Assembly: GCF_004010195.1 (NCBI RefSeq)
Contig: NC_057749.1
Location: 16,943,750 to 17,007,749, forward strand
DNA from: Chiloscyllium plagiosum
Lineage: Eukaryota
Reading direction: 5' to 3'
Length of the DNA: 64,000 nucleotides
The position numbers were made by a program, and so were the translations under genes. Below, piece by piece: positions 4,147 to 59,773 of this stretch. The notes beneath the pieces were generated by a model. The model had not been told where the DNA came from. It did not search any database and saw only the letters and a program-made list of their open reading frames with translations. The number at the start of each line of letters is the position of its first letter. Positions within the stretch are counted from its first letter, which is position 1.

Positions 4147-4380
4147 ATTTTCTTTTAGGGGAAAGTGTGCACTACAGGTGCTGGAGATCAGAGTCAAGAG
4201 CGCGGTGCTGGAAAAGCACAGCAGGTCAGGCAGCATCCATGGAGCAGGAGAATCAATGTTTCAGGCATAAGCCCTTCCTGATGAAGGGCATATACCCAAA
4301 ACGTCAATTCTCCTGTTCCTTGGATGCTGTCTGATCTGCTGTGCTTTTCTAGCACCACACTCTTGATTTTCTGGTAGGGG
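4147..4380. mobile_element. Penelope-derived palindrome with mutated hammerhead core
   Basis: CTGATGAAGGGCATATACCCAAAACGTC; imperfect flanking direct repeat. Confidence 0.8.
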
Positions 4381-5020: not shown

Positions 5021-5308
5021 CAATTTATTTCAGCTCAACTTCTCTACGTCTGTCAGAATTTGGTTCACCGCAGTTTAATTGACAGCATAACCAAATCACA
5101 AATACATATGATCCTGTCATCCATCAGATTCTGAATCACAAAGATTTACAACTCCTGTAAAATATCTTTATAATTTTCACACAATATCTTTACCCAGTGC
5201 AACGATAATGAGGTGTTTTGACAGAAAGGGAAACTGCAATTAAAAATAAATACTGTACAGGAAAGGCATTTCAATAAACACCATGGTTACTGTGAAGTTG
5301 AAAATTTG

Positions 5309-5526
5309 TGAACTGAAAAGGGTTGAAAAATGTGGTGCTGGAAAAACACAGCAGGCCAGGCAGCATCTGAGGAGCAGGAGAATCGACGTTTCGGGCATAT
5401 GCCCGAAACGTCGATTCTCCTGCTCCTCGGATGCTGCCTGGCCTGCTGTGTTTTTCCAGCACCACATTTTTCATCTCTGCTACTCCAGCATCTGCAGTCT
5501 TCACTTTCTCCTGAACTGAAAAGGGT
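5309..5526. mobile_element. Penelope-derived palindrome (5324-5473) lacking the CUGA core, 15 bp TSD
   Basis: TSD TGAACTGAAAAGGGT at 5309 and 5512; centre GGGCATATGCCC. Confidence 0.88.
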
Positions 5527-11889: not shown

Positions 11890-13122
11890 TGGCCAATGTA
11901 GCCTAAAATAAGTCATAGGGAAGTTGCTAGAATCTATTATTGAGGAGGTTATAGCAGGCCTGTTAGAAAATCAAACTATCAGAAAGAGTCAACATGGCTC
12001 TCTAAAAGGAAAATCCTGCTTGACTAATTTATTAGAGGATCTTTGAGGAGGTATCAAGCAAGGTGAATAAAGAGAATCTTGTGGATATGGAGTACACATG
12101 CTAACGAAACACAAGGATTACTGCACAAGACTAGAGCACAAGGTGTAGGAGTAACATATTAGAAGGGACAAAGGATTGGTTAGTTAACAGGAATTAAAGA
12201 GTCAAGATAACACAGTTTTTTGGGTTGGCAATTTATAATAAGTATAGTATAATGTATATCAAAGAGTTTGATTAATGTATGCTTGCTAAATTTGTCCATG
12301 ATAGAGAGATAGAAAAGCAAGTTATGTAAAATAGATCCAGGCAGGTTAGGTCAGTGGGTTGAAAAAAACTGGTAGTTAGGAGTATAATTTGGGAAATATG
12401 AACTTGTTCATTTTGAAAGGAAGAATAGAGATACATTATTTCATTAAGATGACAAGACTCATTGGTAAGGTGGGACCTGGGTGACCCGACACATAAATCA
12501 TAAAAGGTTACTATCCAGATACAGCAAGCAATTAGAAAAGCAGATGGAATGTTGGCTTTTATTGGAAGGGAAATGGAATATAAAAGTCAGGAAGTTTTAC
12601 TGTAGCTGCACAGTGCCATGGGGATTCCACACCTGGGGCGGTGTATAAAAGTTTCGTCTCCTTATTTGAAAATGACATCATTGCATGATAAACAGGCCAG
12701 AGAACTGAAATCATTCCTGGGATGAAGGACTTTACTTTCGCAGAAAAGCTGAACAGGTTGGGCCTATTCCCTTTAGAGTTTAGAAAATTGACGTGATCGT
12801 ATTTAAACATACAAGATCCTTCAGGGCTTAAGGTGGGTTTTGGCAGGATGCTTCCTCGTGTGGGGAGACAAGAACCAAGGAACACAATTTATGAAGAAGA
12901 GGTTCCCCTCTTAAGACGGAGGGAAGAACCTTATTTTCTTTCAGATGCTCGTTAGTTGGTGAATTCCCTTCCCTGTGAAGCAATGGAGGCTGAGTCAGAT
13001 AGTTTTTGACAGACCAGAGAGGAAAGTGAAGTTGACACTACACCCAGAGCAACAAGGAGTTTATTGAAAGGCAGAGCAGACTCAAAGGGCCGAATGGCCT
13101 ACTCCTGCTCCTAATTTCTATG
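11890..13122 (+). mobile_element. Old, heavily decayed CR1 LINE
   Basis: Remnants of SQHGF/KSCLTNL and tail GGGCCGAATGGCCTACTCCTGCTCC. Confidence 0.75.
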
Positions 13123-13787
13123 CTCCCACATTAACAGGCCCCATTCACTGAACTGTTGTTCTGAGAATCTTGCTCTCCACAAAATGGCTGGCATGGTTTC
13201 GGTAAAGTGCTTTGGTCTGTTCCGTTTAGCAGAGAGGTTCAAAGGTGCTGGCCTGAATGCTGGTCTCAAGGGAAAGTGTAATGAAACCAGTCATGTTGCA
13301 GTAAGTGGCAGACTGCCCAAATAACCAGCAACCCAGATTTATTATTGCTCAAGACTGTCTGTTCTCCATCAACTGCATGAGTCAAAAAGAGGGAGGAGGA
13401 ATATTTTGCAATGGTTATCTGCATGGATTCAGTAAATATTGACACAGAACCGGTCAGTTTTTTAAAAATGAACTAATTAACCACTTGCCTTGCTTTATTT
13501 TCCAAATGCTAATGTTATATGTATGGCAACCAAACCTCACACAGTCACTGTGAATTATTACAAAACTGATCAAACTGAGTCGAGAAACACTGGTCTTCCT
13601 TTACCTGAGAAAATCTTACCTTTGGCTCATTAATGCATGGACTCAAACTGGATTGTAATTCCACAGCTTCAGTCACCTTCTTTAAATGGGCATTCTGAGA
13701 CCACAAAGCTGGAATTAAACAAGCTACTCAAGTGCAGAAAGTATTAAAACCAAACCTGACCCTGTCTTTACCCAACATCCACACACA

Positions 13788-14034
13788 TGTGCTTCTTAGA
13801 GTTGAAACTTTATTGCTGGAACAGCACAGCAGGTCAGGCAGCATCCAGGGAACAGGAGATTCGACGTTTCGGGCACAGGCCCTTCTTCAGGATTCCTGAA
13901 GAAGGGCCTGTGCCCGAAACGTCGAATCTCCTGTTCCCTGGATGCTGCCTGACCTGCTGTGCTGTTCCAGCAATAAAGTTTCAACTTTGATCTCCAGCAT
14001 CTGCAGACCTCACTTTCTCCTGTGCTTCTTAGAG
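13788..14034. mobile_element. Penelope-derived palindromic element, perfect inverted repeat 13800-13986, 14 bp TSD
   Basis: TSD TGTGCTTCTTAGAG at 13788 and 14021; the same peptide appears on both strands in the ORF track. Confidence 0.9.
13890..13929 (+). ncRNA. Minimal type I hammerhead ribozyme motif (mirror copy on the minus strand ~13857-13896)
   Basis: GGAUUC-CUGAAGA-A-GGGC/CUGU/GCCC-GAAA-C-GUC-GAAUCU; helix I GGAUUC:GAAUCU. Confidence 0.75.
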
Positions 14035-14739
14035 GGCAAGGTGAGGGAAATCACTGGAATTCAATCGGGAGCGGGACACTGGCTGAATGTTCTTAATCCT
14101 GTCATAATTTGAAACACAACTATGAGATTTTGTACAAACATTTTCTGCTGGAAGAATAACAACAGTTTCTTCAATCTCTCCAGATCAACAAAATTCCTCA
14201 TTTCTGGTACCATCCAGGCAAACCTCCACTGTATTCCCCCCAAGCCCCGAAATCTTTCTGCTCGATATATGCTCCTGAAAAGCACCATGGGATTCTTTAT
14301 TCCAGTGAAATTACTACAATAAGTAATTCTTGCAGCTGCTGCTCAGAATTGATCAAAATACTTCAACCAAGAGCTGACCAGTCATTTCAAAGCATCACCT
14401 GCTTGGATTTCTCAGCTCAATGACTTGTATTATAAAGTAAGGATCCTTGAGTTTATCAGAAACTACAGCCATGTGACTGGACACCTTCAAAGTTTGTGCA
14501 TGTGAATCCCCGGGTGTATCTGTCCCTGCAGTCCCTTTGAAGTGATACCATTTAGTTTGCTAGGAAGGAAGTGGCATAGTGACCATGTTGTTGGATTAGC
14601 AATGCAGGGGCAGAGGCTAACGTTCTCAGGATGCAAGTTGAAATCCTACTGCAGTGGCTGGTGGAATTTAAATGTACTAAACAGAGATGGAATACAAAGC
14701 TTGTCGGCAATGATGATCATAACACAAATCATGGATTAT

Positions 14740-15805
14740 TGGGGTGCATTGAGCTGGATAGAAAACTGTCTGGTAGACAGGAATTAAATAGTCAGAATAG
14801 ACAAGTTTATTTCTGAACGGCAGGCAGTTACTAGTGGGGAACCGCAGGGATTAGTGCTTGGATTCCGAGCCAGTCACAATATATGTTAATGATTTAGATG
14901 AGGGAATTAAATATAATAATCGCCAAATTTGCAGATGACACAAAGCTGGCTGGGAGGGTGAGTTGTGAGGAGGATGCAGACATGCATCAGTGTGATTTGG
15001 ACGACTTGTTTGAATCAGCAAATGTTAACAGATCTGGATAAATGTGAGGTTATCCACGTTGGTAGCAAAAACAGGAAGGCAGGTTATCCTGGCTGTAAAT
15101 TGAGAGTGGAATGCACAATGAGACCTGGGTGTTCTTGTACACCAACTGCTAAATGTAAGCTTGTAGGTGGAACAGGCAGTCGAGCAGGCAAACTGCATGT
15201 TGGTCTTCATAGTGAGATGATTCAAGTAGGGGAAAAACAATGCCTTCCTGCAATGCCTCCTTGGAGAGACCACACCTGGAATATTGTGTGCAGTTTGGTC
15301 TCTTTATTGAAGGAAGAATGTTCTTGTTACAGAGGGAATGCAGCAACGATTTACCTGACTGAATCCTGGGATGGTGGGACTGATATCGGAGGAGAAATTA
15401 AATCAGTTAGGCTGACGTTTACTGGAGTTCAGTGGAATGAGGGTGGAATCTCACAGAAACCAATAAAATTCTAACAGGACCAGACAGTATAGATACAGGA
15501 AGGATGTTTCTGATGGATAAGCAGAAAATAAGCAGGGACCAGATGTCTAAGGATACAAGGTAGAACATGTAGGACTGAGATGAAGACATGTTTCTTCACC
15601 CAAAAAGTGGTGAGCCTGTGGATTTCACTGCTGAAGAAAGCAGTCAAGGCCAAAATACTGTATGATTTCAAGGAGTTAGATATAGCAAAAGGGATCAAAA
15701 AGCATGGGTAAAGCAGGAACAGGTTATTGAGATGGATGATTTGTTGTGATCATAATGAGTGGTGAAACAAGCTCCAATAGACTGCTCCTATTTTCCATGT
15801 TTCTA
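14740..15805 (+). mobile_element. Decayed CR1 LINE 3' part
   Basis: KFADDTKL, DKCEVIH and RPHLEYCVQ remnants. Confidence 0.85.
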
Positions 15806-19270: not shown

Positions 19271-20010
19271 TCTGGCACCTTTCCCTACCACCACAAGTGC
19301 AAACCCTGTGCCCACACCTCCCCCCTCGCCTCTGTCCAAGGCCCCAAAGAATCTTTCCACATCCTACAGAAATTTACCTGTACGTTTATGCTATCTACTG
19401 TATCGTTGCACTCAATGTGGTTTCTTGTACACCGGGGAGACAGGATGCCTCCTTGAGGATCCTTTCAGAGAACATCTCTGAGACACCTGCACCCAACCCC
19501 ACCGCACCGTGGCTGAACACTTCAACTCTCCCTCCCACTCCACCAAAGGACATGCAGGTCCTGGGCCTCCTCCATCGCCAAATCCTTACCACCTGACGCC
19601 TAGAAGAAGAACGCCTCATCTTCTGCTGTGGGACCCTGCAACCACACAGGATTGATGTGGATTTCACCAGTTCCCTCATTTCCCCTCCCCCCAACTTATC
19701 TCAGTCCCAAACCTCCAACTCAGCACCGCCCCCTTGACCTTCTTCCTTCTTCCATCGTCCTTCTTTCCCACCCGTCCGCTCCACCCTCCACTCCGGAATA
19801 TGACTTCCACCCACACCTTCACCTACCTATCACATTCCCAGCTACGTTCCCCCCCAGCCCCCCGCTCCGCTCCCATTTATCTCTCAGCCTCCTTGGCCCA
19901 CAAGCCTCATTCCTGACGAAGGGCTTATGCCCAAAACATCGATTCTCCTGCTCCTCGGATGCTGCCTGACCTGCTGTGCTTTTCCAGCACCACATTCTCA
20001 ACTCTGACTC
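19271..20010 (+). mobile_element. Penelope-like element 3' fragment (GIY-YIG C-terminus and pLTR with mutated hammerhead), inserted into a Deu-domain SINE
   Basis: IYCI...CTQCGFLYTGET and RLEEERLIF..GTLQP remnants; CTGACGAAGGGCTTATGCCCAAAAC at ~19913. Confidence 0.85.
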
Positions 20011-21639
20011 CTCTCTCGGCCAATACGTATCCAATGATCAACATTCGTAAAACAGATTACATAGTCATGATCTCATTGTTACTCGTCTTCTTGTGTACAA
20101 ATTGTGGATGCTGCATTTGCTGCATAAAATAATGACTTCATTTTTGAAAGAGCGCTACAGGCCACATAGCACTTTCGAATAAGACAAAGTTGTGAAAAGT
20201 GGTGTATAAAGAATTTTCTGTTGCTTTCTAAATGAAACGCATGGTAATCGACAATAGAACACAATAAATTGCAGCAATTTTTGCTTAATGAAAACAAAAG
20301 TTGAATATACTAGAGGTCTTTTAGGAAAAAGTTAAGTATATATTCAAAGGTCTGGAACGAGCCAGTTCTAATAAAGAACCCATGCCAGATATTTAAATTG
20401 GTCTTTGCTCTCTCTGGTGTTCAGATTTCCAGCTTGTTGTAACTTTTCTGTCTATTTAACCAGATTTAATAAAAAAAGAGAAAGGTATTTTTGACTCTAC
20501 CAAAGTAAAGTTGAGAGCGATTTTGGAAAAGTTTTGGAAGCAAACAACCGTTAACATAAAACTGCATGGCCAGCTATGAATCCCCCCTTGCTCTTTGCTG
20601 AACAGGAGAAAGTCACCTCGTTTAAGACGAACAGCATCAGCCTGTTTAAAGGCGGTGTGGATACTGGGCTGCACAGAAAGAAAAGGAAAGAACCTGTTGT
20701 CTGTGTCGATATCAACCGCTGCTGCAGGTGAGAGTGTCAGGGCAGGACCAGGAGAGGTAAAATAATTCAAGGTCCTGATGCCTGTCTAGTGAATTCTGCC
20801 TTGTCTGAGTGTGCCCGCTAATGTTAGGATCAGAACTGCAATGTTCCCACAGTCAAACAATCTTCAAACACAGGTATATTGCAAAAGGAAAGTCAACTGA
20901 GATACTATACCAGACATTACTACCCATGCGTGGTTCTATAATTCAGTAAGCCTTTAGCTGAGGTGAGAAACTTTATTTGTGATCCTCCCCAGCTTCAAGT
21001 TTTTGTTTTAAGGAATTAACCTATATTATTACAAACTAAATGTTGAAACAATGCTTCCATTTCTGATCATGAACTCCAAGTTAATTTACTATTTTATAAC
21101 AAGCATAGAATTATAGTTACAAGGCTGGTGCAATACCACTCGAAGTGCTGGCGTTTAAAATAAGGCTCATAGTGTGATCCGTTATTTAACTCATCACACT
21201 CATCACATTAAACATTTGTTGAGTCAGGTTAATTTAAAGTCAGACTTCCCCTTCACTCCACAAGCATGAGTTTTCCATTAACATAACAAGGTGTAAAATA
21301 ATGTCTTGCTGTTGCCGTACGTGCCACACACATGCAAGGTCACTTTCAGCAAACACCACTGGCTTTCACGATTGACATCAGCATCCCCGTCCAACCCAGA
21401 CAGGTGGACTGAAAGGCTCCTTTGTCCAATGACTGTAAGGGGCCCAAACAAAATGAATTTGGGTGGTAGCATGTTGCACCTCCTGATCAACAAGCAAATG
21501 TCTCAGAGGTCAGAGTGTGACCTTTGTGGTTCACGGAATAATATCACAACATGGATAGGAACAGCTGCTGAGCTTGTAGAACAGACACTTATCTTGAGAC
21601 AGTAGTTGCAGCGATGAGGGATTAGTGGCATGGAAAAGC

Positions 21640-23218: not shown

Positions 23219-23477
23219 AAGAAAATTAAAGGAAAAGAGAAAATGCTGGAAAATCTCAGCAGATCTGGCAGCATCTGTAAGGAGAGAAAAGAGCTGACGC
23301 TTCGAGTCTAACTGACCCTTTGTCAAAGCTTTGACAAAGGGTCAGTTAGACTCGAAACGTCAGCTGTTTTCTCTTCCTACAGATGCTGCCATACCTGCTG
23401 AGATTTTCCAGCATTTTCTCTTTTGGTTTCAGATTCGAGCATCCGCAGTAATTTGCTTTTATTAAGAAAATGAAAGG
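23219..23477. mobile_element. Penelope-derived palindrome (third family), degenerate core TTGACAA-AGGGTC...GACTC-GAAACGTC; older relatives at ~2062-2275, 23565-23740, 28603-28830, 33662-33945, 34653-34842, 46305-46470
   Basis: Near-perfect inverted repeat centred on AAAGCTTT (23328/9); 13/14 TSD AAGAAAATKAAAGG. Confidence 0.85.
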
Positions 23478-24069: not shown

Positions 24070-24309
24070 CACAATCTGCTATGGGGGGAAAGTGAGGTCT
24101 GCAGATGCTGGAGATCAGAGCTGAAAATGTGTTGCTGGAAAAGCGCAGCAGGTCAGGCAGCATCCAGGGAACAGGAGAATCGACGTTTCGGGCATAAGCC
24201 CTTCCTGAAGAAGGGCTTATGCCCGAAACGTCGATTCTCCTGCTCCTTGGATGCTGCCTGACCTGCTGCGCTTTTCCAGCAACACATTTTCAGCTCACAA
24301 TCTGCTGTG
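24070..24309. mobile_element. Penelope-derived palindrome, intact hammerhead core on + (24205-24232)
   Basis: 13/14 TSD CACAATCTGCTRTG. Confidence 0.88.
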
Positions 24310-41738: not shown

Positions 41739-41871
41739 TTAGTTTTGGAACAACTGGTGATCCTACAAATACAATTTTGTTTTAAAAGCATCAGTGGGGT
41801 CAATAATTTAGCCAACAACAGCAGTATGTGACAGCTTTCTCTGGATAGTCCTGTGGTGAATGGATGCCAGG

Positions 41872-42117
41872 CTGATTGCCTGTGTTCAGAGTGTGGTGCT
41901 GGAAAAGCACAGCAGGTCAGACAGCATCTGAGGAGCAGGAGAGTCAATGTTTTGGCATAAACCCTTCATCAGGAATTCCTGATGAAGGGTTTATGGCCGA
42001 AACGTCGATTCTCCTGTTCCTCGGATGTTGCCTGACCTGCTGTGCTTTTCCAGCACCACACTCTCGACTCTGATCTCCAGCATCTGCAGTTCTTACTTTC
42101 TCCTCCTGATTGCCTGT
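41872..42117. mobile_element. Penelope-derived palindrome within the probable IQGAP1 3'UTR
   Basis: 12 bp TSD CTGATTGCCTGT; centre TCATCAGGAATTCCTGATGA. Confidence 0.88.
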
Positions 42118-44643: not shown

Positions 44644-44883
44644 CTGTGCCGAGAGAGGAGAAAGTGAGGTCTGCAGATGCTGGAGATCAGAGCTGGAAAT
44701 GTGTTGCTGGAAAAGCGCAGCAGGTCAGGCAGCATCCAGGGAACAGGAGAATCGACGTTTTGGGCATAAGCCAACCCATTTCCTGAAGAAGGGCTTATGC
44801 CCGAAACGTCGATTCTCCTGTTCCCTGGATGCTGCCTGACCTGCTGCGCTTTTCCAGCAACACATTTCCTGTGCCGATAGAGG
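44644..44883. mobile_element. Penelope-derived palindrome, intact core on + (44783-44810)
   Basis: 14/15 TSD CTGTGCCGAKAGAGG. Confidence 0.88.
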
Positions 44884-45080: not shown

Positions 45081-45326
45081 TGTTAACTGAAGTTTTTGAG
45101 GAGAAAGTGAGAAAGTGAGGACTGCAGATGCTGGACATCAGAGCTGAAAATGTGTTGCTGGAAAAGCGCAGCAGGTCAGGCAGCATCCAGGGAACAGGAG
45201 AATCGACGTTTTGGGCATAAGCCCAAAGAAGGGCTTATGTCCGAAACGTCGATTCTCCTGTTCCCTGGATGCTGAATGACCTGCTGCGCTTTTCCAGCAA
45301 CACATTTTCAGCTGTTAACTGAAGTT
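45081..45326. mobile_element. Penelope-derived palindrome with truncated core; solo arm nearby at ~45480-45610
   Basis: 14 bp TSD TGTTAACTGAAGTT. Confidence 0.88.
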
Positions 45327-56899: not shown

Positions 56900-59020
56900 G
56901 CTATGGATGCTGGAATCTGAAAAAAAAGGAGATCACAGCAGGTCAAGCAGCATCCATGGAGAGAAAGCAAGCTAACCTTTTGAGTCTAGATGACTCTTCA
57001 CCAGAATTGGTGAAGTGTGGAGGGAACAACATTTATGCACTTGTGGGGGTTGGGTGGGGGTAGCTGGAGTGCTGAGGGAAAAAGGATGTTGATAGTTCAG
57101 ATAAAGTTATCAGAATGTGAGAATTGCAGAGCAATGGTGTGTCTCACTGCCAGACTGGAAAGAACAGACAGTCCCACTTGGCGGAGAGGGATGGGGGGGT
57201 GGAGGGAGGGGAGAGAGGGTGACAGAGACTGTAACAAGCAAAGCTAAAAGAAAGGGAAGGAATGAGTTCACAATTTGAAGGTGCTGAATTCAATATTAAG
57301 TCCAAAATGTTGTAAACTACCTAGTTTGAAGATGAGATGTTGTTCCTGCAGTTTGTGCTGTGATTCATTAGAGCATTGCAGGGTGCTGAGGACAGAAAAG
57401 TGGGCATATGAACAAGACATTGAGTTAAAATAACCAACTACAGGAAGGTCTGCGTCATGCTTGCACACGGACCGGAGGTGCTCCGGGAAGTGGTCTGTGT
57501 TTGGTTTCAGCAATACAGAGTAGGCCACGTTGGGTGCAATGAATACAATAGACAAGATTGGAGGAGGTACAGGTGAAATGCTGTTTGGTGGTGGTGTTTT
57601 GCTGGTGTTGTCTGAAGTGGCAGAGAGATGTTTTGAATGCAGAGGCTGGTGAGTTAAAAAGTGATGAAACGGGGGACCAAATCACGCTGATAAAAGAAGG
57701 AAGCCATGTCAACAGCGTTGTTTTGGAAGGTGGCATCATTCGAACAAATATGACAAAGGTGAAGGAACTGGGAGAATGGGATGGAGTCCTTGCAGGACGT
57801 GAGGTGTGAAGAGCTGGAGTGAAAGTAGCTACGGGAGTCAGTGGCTTTGTGATGGATGGCGGTAAACAGTTTATTCCCTGAAATGGATTTGGAGACGTCA
57901 AGGAAAGAAAGGGAATTGTCAGAAATGGTTGATGTAAAAGTTATAGAGGGATGAAAATTGGAGGCAAAATGAACAAATTTGTCAAGGCCCAGGCGGGAGC
58001 ATAAAATGACACTGAAACAGATGCTGATATACCGAGAAAAGAGCGGGGACCAGTGTCAGACTGGAACAAGGACTATTCCACATCCCCATAAAGAGGCAGG
58101 GCATAACTGGGATCCATGTGGATGCCCATAGCCACTCCTTTGAAGTGAGATGAATTAAAGAAGAAATTGTTCAGTGAGAGAACAAGCTCAGCCAGGCAAA
58201 GGAGAGTGGTGGTGGATGTGAATTGTTCTAGCCTCTGGTCAAGGGAGAAACCAAGAATTCTTAGACCATCTTGGTAGGGAATGGAGGTATAGAGGGATTG
58301 TACATCTGTGGTAAATAGGAGGCAGTTAGGGCCAGGGAACTGGAAATTGTCAGTATGGTGGAGAGCATCAGTGGAATCGTGGATGTAGGTCATCTGGACA
58401 AATGGATAGAGGATAGAGTCAAAGTAGGAGGAAATGAGCTGAGTCAGGCAGGAACAGGCTGATATGATGGGCCTACTGGGGTAGTCTGGTTTGTGGATTT
58501 TGGGAAGGAGATAGAAGCGAGCTTCCGGTATCAGGAGACTATAACGTTGGAGGCAGTGGGAGGAAGATCTCCAGAGGCATTGAGGTGAGTGACAGTCCTG
58601 GCAACAATAGCTCAATGTTCAAAAGTGGGTCATGGTCTAGGGGACGTAGGAAGTAATGTCTGAGGGTTGGCATTGAGCCTCTGCAAGGTTAAGATCAATA
58701 TGCCAGACTACACTGGCATCACCTTTGTCACTCTCTCTCCCCTCTGCCACCCCAGTGAGACGGTCTGTTCCTTCCAGTCAGGCAGTTAAACACGCCATTG
58801 CTCTGCCATTCTCATATTCTGATCACTTAATCTGAATTATTAACATCCTTTCTCCCCCACCACTCCAATCTCCTTCCCACTATTGAATAAATGCTGCCCC
58901 CTTCCCACTTCACTTCAGCTCTGATGAAGAATCTTCTGGACTCAAAACATTGGTTTGCTTTCTCTCCAGGAATGCTACTTGATTCTGTTGTGATCTCCAG
59001 CATTTTTTCTTTTCAGTTCA
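56900..59020 (-). mobile_element. Decayed Penelope-like retroelement (RT + GIY-YIG endonuclease) with ~280 bp inverted terminal repeats
   Basis: RT remnants FYLLPKIHK..RPIIS, DVQSLYTSIP, GVAMG; GIY-YIG remnants FTCTSSNLVYCIHC..ET, EQHLIFKLGSLQ..GLN; ~56930-57190 is the reverse complement of ~58735-59015. Confidence 0.9.
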
Positions 59021-59365: not shown

Positions 59366-59773
59366 TTGTTGTGGTTCTGTTCGCCGAGCTGGGAATTTGT
59401 GTTGCAGACGTTTCATCCCCTGTCTAGGTGACATCCTCAGTGCTTGGGAGCCTCCTATGAAGCGCTTCTGTGATCTTTCCTCCGTCATTTGTAGTAGTTT
59501 GTCTCTGCCGCTTCCGGTTGTCAGTTCCAGCTGTCCACTGCAGTGTCCGGTATATTGGGTCCAAACACATCGACCTGGACACAATATACCGACCACTGCA
59601 ACGGACAGCTGGAACTGACAACCGGAAGTGGCAGAGACAAACCACTATAAATGCTGGAGGAAAGATCACAGAAGCGCTTCACAGGAGGCTCCCAAGCACT
59701 GAGGATGTCACCGAGACAGGGGACGAAACATCTGCAACACAAATTCCCAGCTCGGTGAACAGAACCACAACAA
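59366..59773. mobile_element. 408 bp fold-back Penelope-type element with hammerhead motifs on both strands
   Basis: ~197 bp arms, ~12 nt loop; CTGAGGA-T-GTCACC...GGGGAY-GAAAC(G/A)TC. Confidence 0.85.

Follow-up and report, generated by a model that had tools for sequence, protein, structure and literature searches.

A palindromic Penelope-like insertion with a hammerhead motif on each strand in Chiloscyllium plagiosum, and its probable origin by double-primed reverse transcription

The DNA analysed here, a stretch of 64,000 nucleotides of Chiloscyllium plagiosum (the window), contains at 13788..14034 an insertion in which a perfect palindrome carries a hammerhead ribozyme motif on each strand. 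The question raised by this locus is how such a palindrome is made, and whether it represents a pair of working ribozymes in a repeat that spreads as a unit. The anatomy proved to be as described in the first-pass annotation of this DNA, which had claimed a 187 nt palindrome centred at 13893, a one-sided tail and an exact 14 bp target-site duplication (TSD). The palindrome is composed of 93+1+93 nt (13800-13892 and 13894-13986, with T13893 at the centre), the tail is 34 nt long, and the TSD 14-mer is identical at 13788-13801 and 14021-14034 and absent elsewhere in the window on either strand. The reading as a single insertion event bounded by the TSD was likewise borne out. Positions within the element are numbered from the hammerhead C3, which is +1 and corresponds to window position 13896. 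The features are as follows.

13788..13801, no strand: left TSD, 14 bp, its final 2 bp (13800-13801) overlapping the short arm and the outer palindrome
13800..13892, minus strand: inverted short arm, end of a Penelope-like element (PLE) pseudo-LTR, -1 to +91, stopping at the proximal end site
13863..13890, minus strand: minimal type I hammerhead core, helix I pairs 5/6
13892..13894, no strand: head-to-head junction, arms joined at -1 and -3, with 1 nt shared or a 1 nt unpaired centre
13892..13986, plus strand: sense arm, -3 to +91, where -3 is the modal 5' end of the family
13896..13923, plus strand: minimal type I hammerhead core, helix I pairs 6/6, predicted cut 3' of 13923
13987..14020, plus strand: PLE 'tail', 34 nt, lying between the two end sites (+91 and about +126); the tail concept is that of PMC11167929
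14021..14034, no strand: right TSD, 14 bp

With the tail included the right arm covers -3 to +125, against -1 to +91 for the left arm, and as the arms differ by just 2 nt at the junction, the polarity of this junction is ambiguous.

Each strand carries the claimed hammerhead core, CUGAAGA-A-GGGC(CUGU)GCCC-GAAA-C-GUC, at 13896-13923 on the plus strand and at 13890-13863 on the minus strand; that it occurs on both strands follows trivially from the element being a palindrome. The 6 bp helix I that had been assigned to the plus copy does pair at this locus, but the native helix I is 4 bp (13892-13895 with 13924-13927). The two additional pairs come from a GG donated by the inverted arm, since unbroken copies have CTCATTC preceding CUGA, and we therefore rejected the 6 bp helix as a designed feature and regard these pairs as a by-product of the junction. 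The CUGANGA / GAAA / UH core, helix II, a short helix I and a palindromic helix III (ACGU) are all present. This agrees with the claim of a minimal dimer-type hammerhead with an extra base after A9, and with the minimal hammerheads (min-HHR) of metazoan PLEs as characterised by Cervera and De la Pena (2014, PMC4209133). By that characterisation the shared traits are the intact core, the extra base between positions 9 and 10.1, the G10.1-C11.1 pair, the palindromic 15.2-16.2 and the 4 bp helix I. The same paper's account of Schistosoma has dual hammerhead motifs on opposite strands, 100-700 bp apart. The motifs studied here differ from those it describes in having a helix II of 4 bp instead of 7-8, and in abutting each other at the palindrome centre, where a perfect hairpin locks them in.

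In a predicted monomer fold helix I and helix II form as expected. An Rfam scan of 13000-15000 with E up to 10 returned no hammerhead model; the matches in this interval were hairpin (miRNA) models only, each under its gathering score. For the whole-element transcript, the 93 bp hairpin was calculated at -208.5 kcal/mol, against -148.7 kcal/mol when helix I and helix II were forced. A functional ribozyme pair inside the palindrome was rejected on account of this preference of about 60 kcal/mol, and since the hairpin outcompetes the helix I/II fold in the model, neither ribozyme copy should be active in a whole-element transcript. When two monomers were cofolded the helix III dimer was not the minimum, although four intermolecular pairs are too weak for such a test. 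In subfamily B of the repeat, a T for A at +31 reduces helix I to 2 pairs, a U-U mismatch and 1 pair. Palindromes of subfamily B outnumber those of subfamily A despite this mismatch.

Other copies of the same subfamily are organised head to tail, as arrays whose 194-224 bp units each contain a hammerhead (loci L091:400-1037, L116:140-1250 and L117:100-670). One 224 bp unit junction is common to L091, L116 and L117, and a 224 bp spacing occurs at 8 of the listed loci. These arrays would be better candidates for ribozyme activity than the palindromes; they fit the definition of non-LTR retrozymes and might possibly give rise to circular RNA. The insertion at 13788..14034 has features in common with the non-LTR retrozymes of Li, Clavereau and Pollet (2026, 10.64898/2026.07.22.740005), which by that report's description are likewise derived from PLE pseudo-LTRs, non-coding, and equipped with a type I hammerhead. 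It differs in being head to head instead of head to tail, so that no cis dimer is formed. We therefore rejected this class for the locus; other loci of the subfamily, L116 and L117, do have the head-to-tail arrangement.

The proposed Penelope-like origin was supported by longer copies, in which a GIY-YIG domain lies upstream, the endonuclease end is contiguous with the arm and an ORF starts past the tail. At L091 the domain matched PF01541 (GIY-YIG, E 3.9e-6, 27.5 bits against a cut-off of 22.6) with the sequence IIYCIRCSRSGLLYIG; there is a CxxC inside the GIY-YIG core, and a CX4CxxC linker, CNRRRCNTC, stands directly upstream. The C terminus of the endonuclease continues into the hammerhead arm at L038 and at window 19274-20011. 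In copies that extend past the tail, an ATG at +163 starts a reading frame containing H..FL..C...LIPHGL, of which L118 reaches the N terminus; judged by eye, this frame resembles a PLE N terminus. From this context the arm is identified as the pseudo-LTR end of an EN+ PLE. The linker motif would assign the element to Neptune or Nematis, either of the two, as a CX2-5CxxC linker between reverse transcriptase (RT) and endonuclease is the mark that PMC8557442, in its treatment of these clades, gives for both. RT-type motifs, judged by eye, were confined to neighbouring fragments (L084, L037 and window 57911-58138), and none of the retrieved copies of this subfamily contained a full-length RT ORF. 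The window copy at 19274-20011 is an older, longer, 5'-truncated copy of a sister subfamily with a decayed GIY-YIG upstream of its hammerhead arm. On the minus strand of window 57500-58140 a weak GIY-YIG match comes after degenerate RT-type motifs (GVAMG, LSFLD).

An inverted 5'-truncated pseudo-LTR, an optional 30-40 bp tail and a TSD make up the EN+ PLE layout as set out in PMC3846280 and PMC8557442. Pseudo-LTRs in direct or inverted copies, a tail and a variable TSD were all found in the present family. The likeness includes the head-to-head pseudo-LTRs, a one-sided tail of 34 nt, the TSD, and a GIY-YIG domain with CCHH-type cysteines upstream. Compared with the layout in those descriptions, both arms are here 95-130 nt stumps that enclose no body, and there are thousands of copies per subfamily. 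The insertion at 13788..14034 is accordingly a known kind of PLE insertion, whose inverted copy, tail and hammerhead have already been published.

The very high abundance that had been proposed for these repeats was evident from exact-match pattern searches over the 3.56 Gb genome, in which the 31 nt hammerhead pattern gave 42,185 matches and a 44 nt stretch of subfamily A gave 17,693. Against these 17,693 arms, the sequence immediately past the tail had only 375 matches. We counted 2,894 palindromes with two subfamily A arms, about 5,400 with two subfamily B arms and 9 A/B hybrids, where the ratios are rough because the search patterns differ in length. The junction at 13892..13894 was found identically at 220 loci, which is about 7.6% of the 2,894 short subfamily A palindromes. 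Among the first 50 of these palindromes there were 26 distinct junctions by hand tally, with the 13892..13894 junction appearing 5 times. MITE (class II) status was rejected on this junction diversity together with the one-sided tail, the long and variable TSD (10-18 bp) and the retroelement ORF in long copies. In repeat annotation these palindromes should be classed neither as MITEs nor as miRNA hairpins.

According to the first-pass annotation, identical junctions at many loci would imply that the palindrome itself is mobilised. The recurrence was found, but the implication was not supported, since common junctions of subfamily A, the one at 13892..13894 among them, recur in subfamily B, whose arms differ. 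Moreover, one arm variant, carried by both arms, was paired with three different junctions. Among the first 30 of the 220 loci, 29 combine one long and one short arm and the 30th is a nested copy; at the 29 loci the tail is on the left in 16 and on the right in 13. All of the 33 same-junction insertions examined have a direct repeat of 10-18 bp at the arm ends, of 14 bp in 16 of the 33 (one being the nested copy). The short palindromes, including the one studied here, look newly made at each landing. Two insertions 573 bp apart at L095 (G000:C8:84961900-84963200) have the same junction, opposite tail arms and different TSDs.

The ends of the arms were mapped for 64 arms with an anchor at +45..+88, taken from 100 listed subfamily A matches at the start of contig C1 with L091 excluded; these samples are small and consist of the first listed loci of that contig instead of random draws. 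The 3' ends are bimodal, with 28 arms ending at +88..+107 and 36 at +122..+134 (modes +91 and +127). Each of the 16 inverted pairs in the sample, 15 of them independent, joins a long to a short arm, and long-long or short-short pairs never occurred. Both kinds of end overlap the TSD by 1.5-1.8 nt on average, against about 0.33 nt by chance, as if both ends had been primed. The 5' ends lie within -5..+3 in 39 of the 64 arms, with a mode at -3 (8 arms), and contig joints in sequencing runs X15 and X1 return to -3/-4. Ten of the 64 arms extend upstream beyond -10, and with about a fifth of arms reaching further upstream, other templates exist. Hammerhead cleavage was rejected as the origin of the 5' ends, since none of the 64 arms begins at the cut site +29. 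In unbroken copies -3 is the A of TCATTCC, which fits the initiator consensus, although this is a short motif that occurs 5 times within 410 nt. Counted from the -3 site, ACGTC at +28..+32 might be read as DPE-like, but this is not claimed, as it fits the Drosophila element motif RGACGTGY only loosely.

Based on these data we consider that the insertion is probably a dead-end product of double-primed reverse transcription by an endonuclease-bearing PLE. The element RNA would begin just upstream of the hammerhead, at the initiator-like -3, with its ORF from +163. The GIY-YIG enzyme would make a staggered cut of both target strands, about 12-15 bp, and each 3' end would serve as primer for reverse transcription from an internal site of the RNA, about +126 for one and about +91 for the other, both cDNAs usually being templated by the same RNA or source. 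The cDNAs would run off the 5' end of the RNA after 95-130 nt, be slightly trimmed and have their 3' ends joined to each other at short microhomologies. The expected product is a head-to-head palindrome with a TSD, in which the 34-35 nt stretch between the two sites forms the one-sided tail; with few microhomologies near the 5' end, the same junction could arise repeatedly and independently. A more specific form of this proposal, which we favour slightly, is that an RT-endonuclease dimer uses both target strands as primers on a single capped RNA, at sites separated by 35 nt, and joins the two strong-stop cDNAs head to head, the thousands of stubs being the genomic record. The 9 A/B hybrids imply that both arms come nearly always, but not always, from one source. 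The rarity of hybrids could also result from subfamilies being active at different times or from homogenisation of the arms after insertion.

Twin priming of LINE-1 is a related process, in which both target strands prime on one RNA and the products are joined at microhomology; L1 inverts without duplicating. Here, in contrast, both primers would copy the same 5' stretch, which yields a palindrome. The nearest biochemical parallel is the Anolis carolinensis Poseidon element (Frangieh et al., 2024, PMC11167929): in the experiments presented there, both strands are cut in vitro by the anole protein, a predicted dimer, and their extension begins at the same two internal sites. Poseidon as portrayed in that work is also alike in that its tail is delimited by two end sites with a spacing of 35 nt, and in the lack of ends at the hammerhead cut site; the absence of 5' ends at +29 is consistent with uncut RNA being the main template, as was found for the anole element. 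It is unlike the present element in that the linker here is of the Neptune/Nematis type, and the end sites precede the predicted ATG instead of falling inside the ORF; in the account of the anole paper considered here, the inverted copy is not derived from double priming.

Three other explanations were weighed against double priming. The fold-back named in the first-pass annotation may be understood as a single cDNA (or antisense template) snapping back and copying itself, with the endonuclease resolving the second end at +91 and deletions at the centre blurring the loop. Self-priming is the published reading, as presented by Arkhipova et al. (2013, PMC3846280), and would account for arms that hardly differ (17 mismatches over 2,465 nt, with 17 of 29 pairs perfect over 85 nt), share variants and almost never belong to two subfamilies; some junctions, such as those of the copies at window 24060 and 4130, allow a 5 nt loop. 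Later deletions at palindrome centres could blur the polarity of a junction or hide a snap-back origin. Nevertheless, a loop of at least 3 nt is expected from self-priming, and centres of 0-2 nt are common among the A palindromes. The tail is also expected on the arm that reaches further 5', whereas the tail-less arm is the one that extends further, by up to 73 nt, in 7 of the 13 asymmetric pairs that were informative (the 13892..13894 junction and a tie at L094 were excluded, and L043/L092 counted once), a result that speaks against the snap-back of one cDNA. At L094:226-590 both arms stop exactly at -3 and enclose about 135 nt of unrelated filler inside one TSD, which argues in the same direction, as do the nine mixed-subfamily palindromes. 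We consider self-priming unlikely, and the data here favour double priming over this 2013 proposal. The idea that the repeats insert as units and form a non-autonomous family of their own, copied from palindromic masters, appears very improbable and is largely refuted for the short class, even though 220 loci have the exact junction. Copying from a master would fix the side of the tail, and the far end would be ragged or carry flank, whereas the tail side is divided 16:13 and at the 30 same-junction loci the TSD lies directly at both arm ends. The same junctions in a second subfamily, and the fixed start sites without any carried flank, likewise speak against unit copying, as does the fact that the short copies are without sequence past the tail, while the anole element, in the assays of PMC11167929, needs RNA downstream of the start sites. 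The claim holds for a longer palindrome. L043 and L092 have a longer junction (-148/-75) and the adjoining upstream flank in common (G000:C1, L043/L042/L092 at about 1.861-1.864 Mb and 5.367 Mb), and the join of flank and arm is present at 300 loci, so that RT can pass a fold-back template. This is one longer palindrome lineage that is inherited, copied with its flank from a read-through master. L042 and L043 together make up a single insertion of 3.0 kb, which has a 13 bp TSD and has acquired a new short arm on the outside; inherited copies thus bear the flank of the master and gain a new outer arm, which the short palindromes do not.

The third explanation retains double priming but places at the foot of the hammerhead an RT stop or a processing site (helix I, a protein-bound ribozyme or a splice site) in place of a transcription start. 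The 5' pile-up does fall on the helix I 5' strand (-3..0), and in Drosophila virilis the Penelope intron ends at helix I, as stated in PMC4209133, and the start site lies further upstream, by the mapping given in PMC2377424; with a start upstream of the intron, -3 need not be the start site. A capped end was also not seen in RNA run X19. Yet solo copies do not share an upstream exon joined at -3, a helix of 4 bp is a weak obstacle for an RT that is already past the core, and the base most often found at the 5' end is the A of TCATTCC. We regard a stop or processing site as quite unlikely. In RNA run X19 there were 1,060 reads on a single unit, from both strands, of which 98% continue into other sequence, and no pile of read ends or transcript start on the unit was found among them; the reads look like passengers in host transcripts. 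RNA run X20 had no reads on the unit.

The origin of the inverted pseudo-LTRs and tails of PLEs is still called undefined where PMC8557442 addresses it. Our search of openly accessible papers listed no title on these repeats or on double priming by PLEs. The contribution of the present analysis consists of the genome-wide counts, the rule of one long and one short arm with a free tail side, the count of hybrids and the inherited 300-copy lineage. The long/short rule, the independence of tail side from junction polarity and the scarcity of mixed arms provide predictions that can be put to the test in vitro, using the system of Frangieh et al. If dual priming on one RNA is true, it would explain the inverted pseudo-LTR and the one-sided tail of PLEs in one step; the promoter start would lie at the foot of the hammerhead, and uncut RNA would be the template in vivo. 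The at least 8,000 young and near-perfect palindromes would also constitute a large source of dsRNA and may form cruciforms in the genome.

About ten further arm copies are present in the window. Six more copies are palindromic and belong to subfamily B or are older (4158-4359, 5288-5511, 24085-24295, 41849-42103, 44657-44860 and 45109-45313); these six have flanking direct repeats of 7-15 bp, and two of them share one junction. A palindrome with 108 bp arms at 23221-23436 belongs to a different PLE-like family. Its core, read by eye as UUGACAA...GAAACGUC, resembles the U3-A8 variant as that variant is described in PMC4209133. An inverted repeat with 198 bp arms at 59366-59773 represents a third family, with a hammerhead-like core that has a longer helix II, on the minus strand at 59440.
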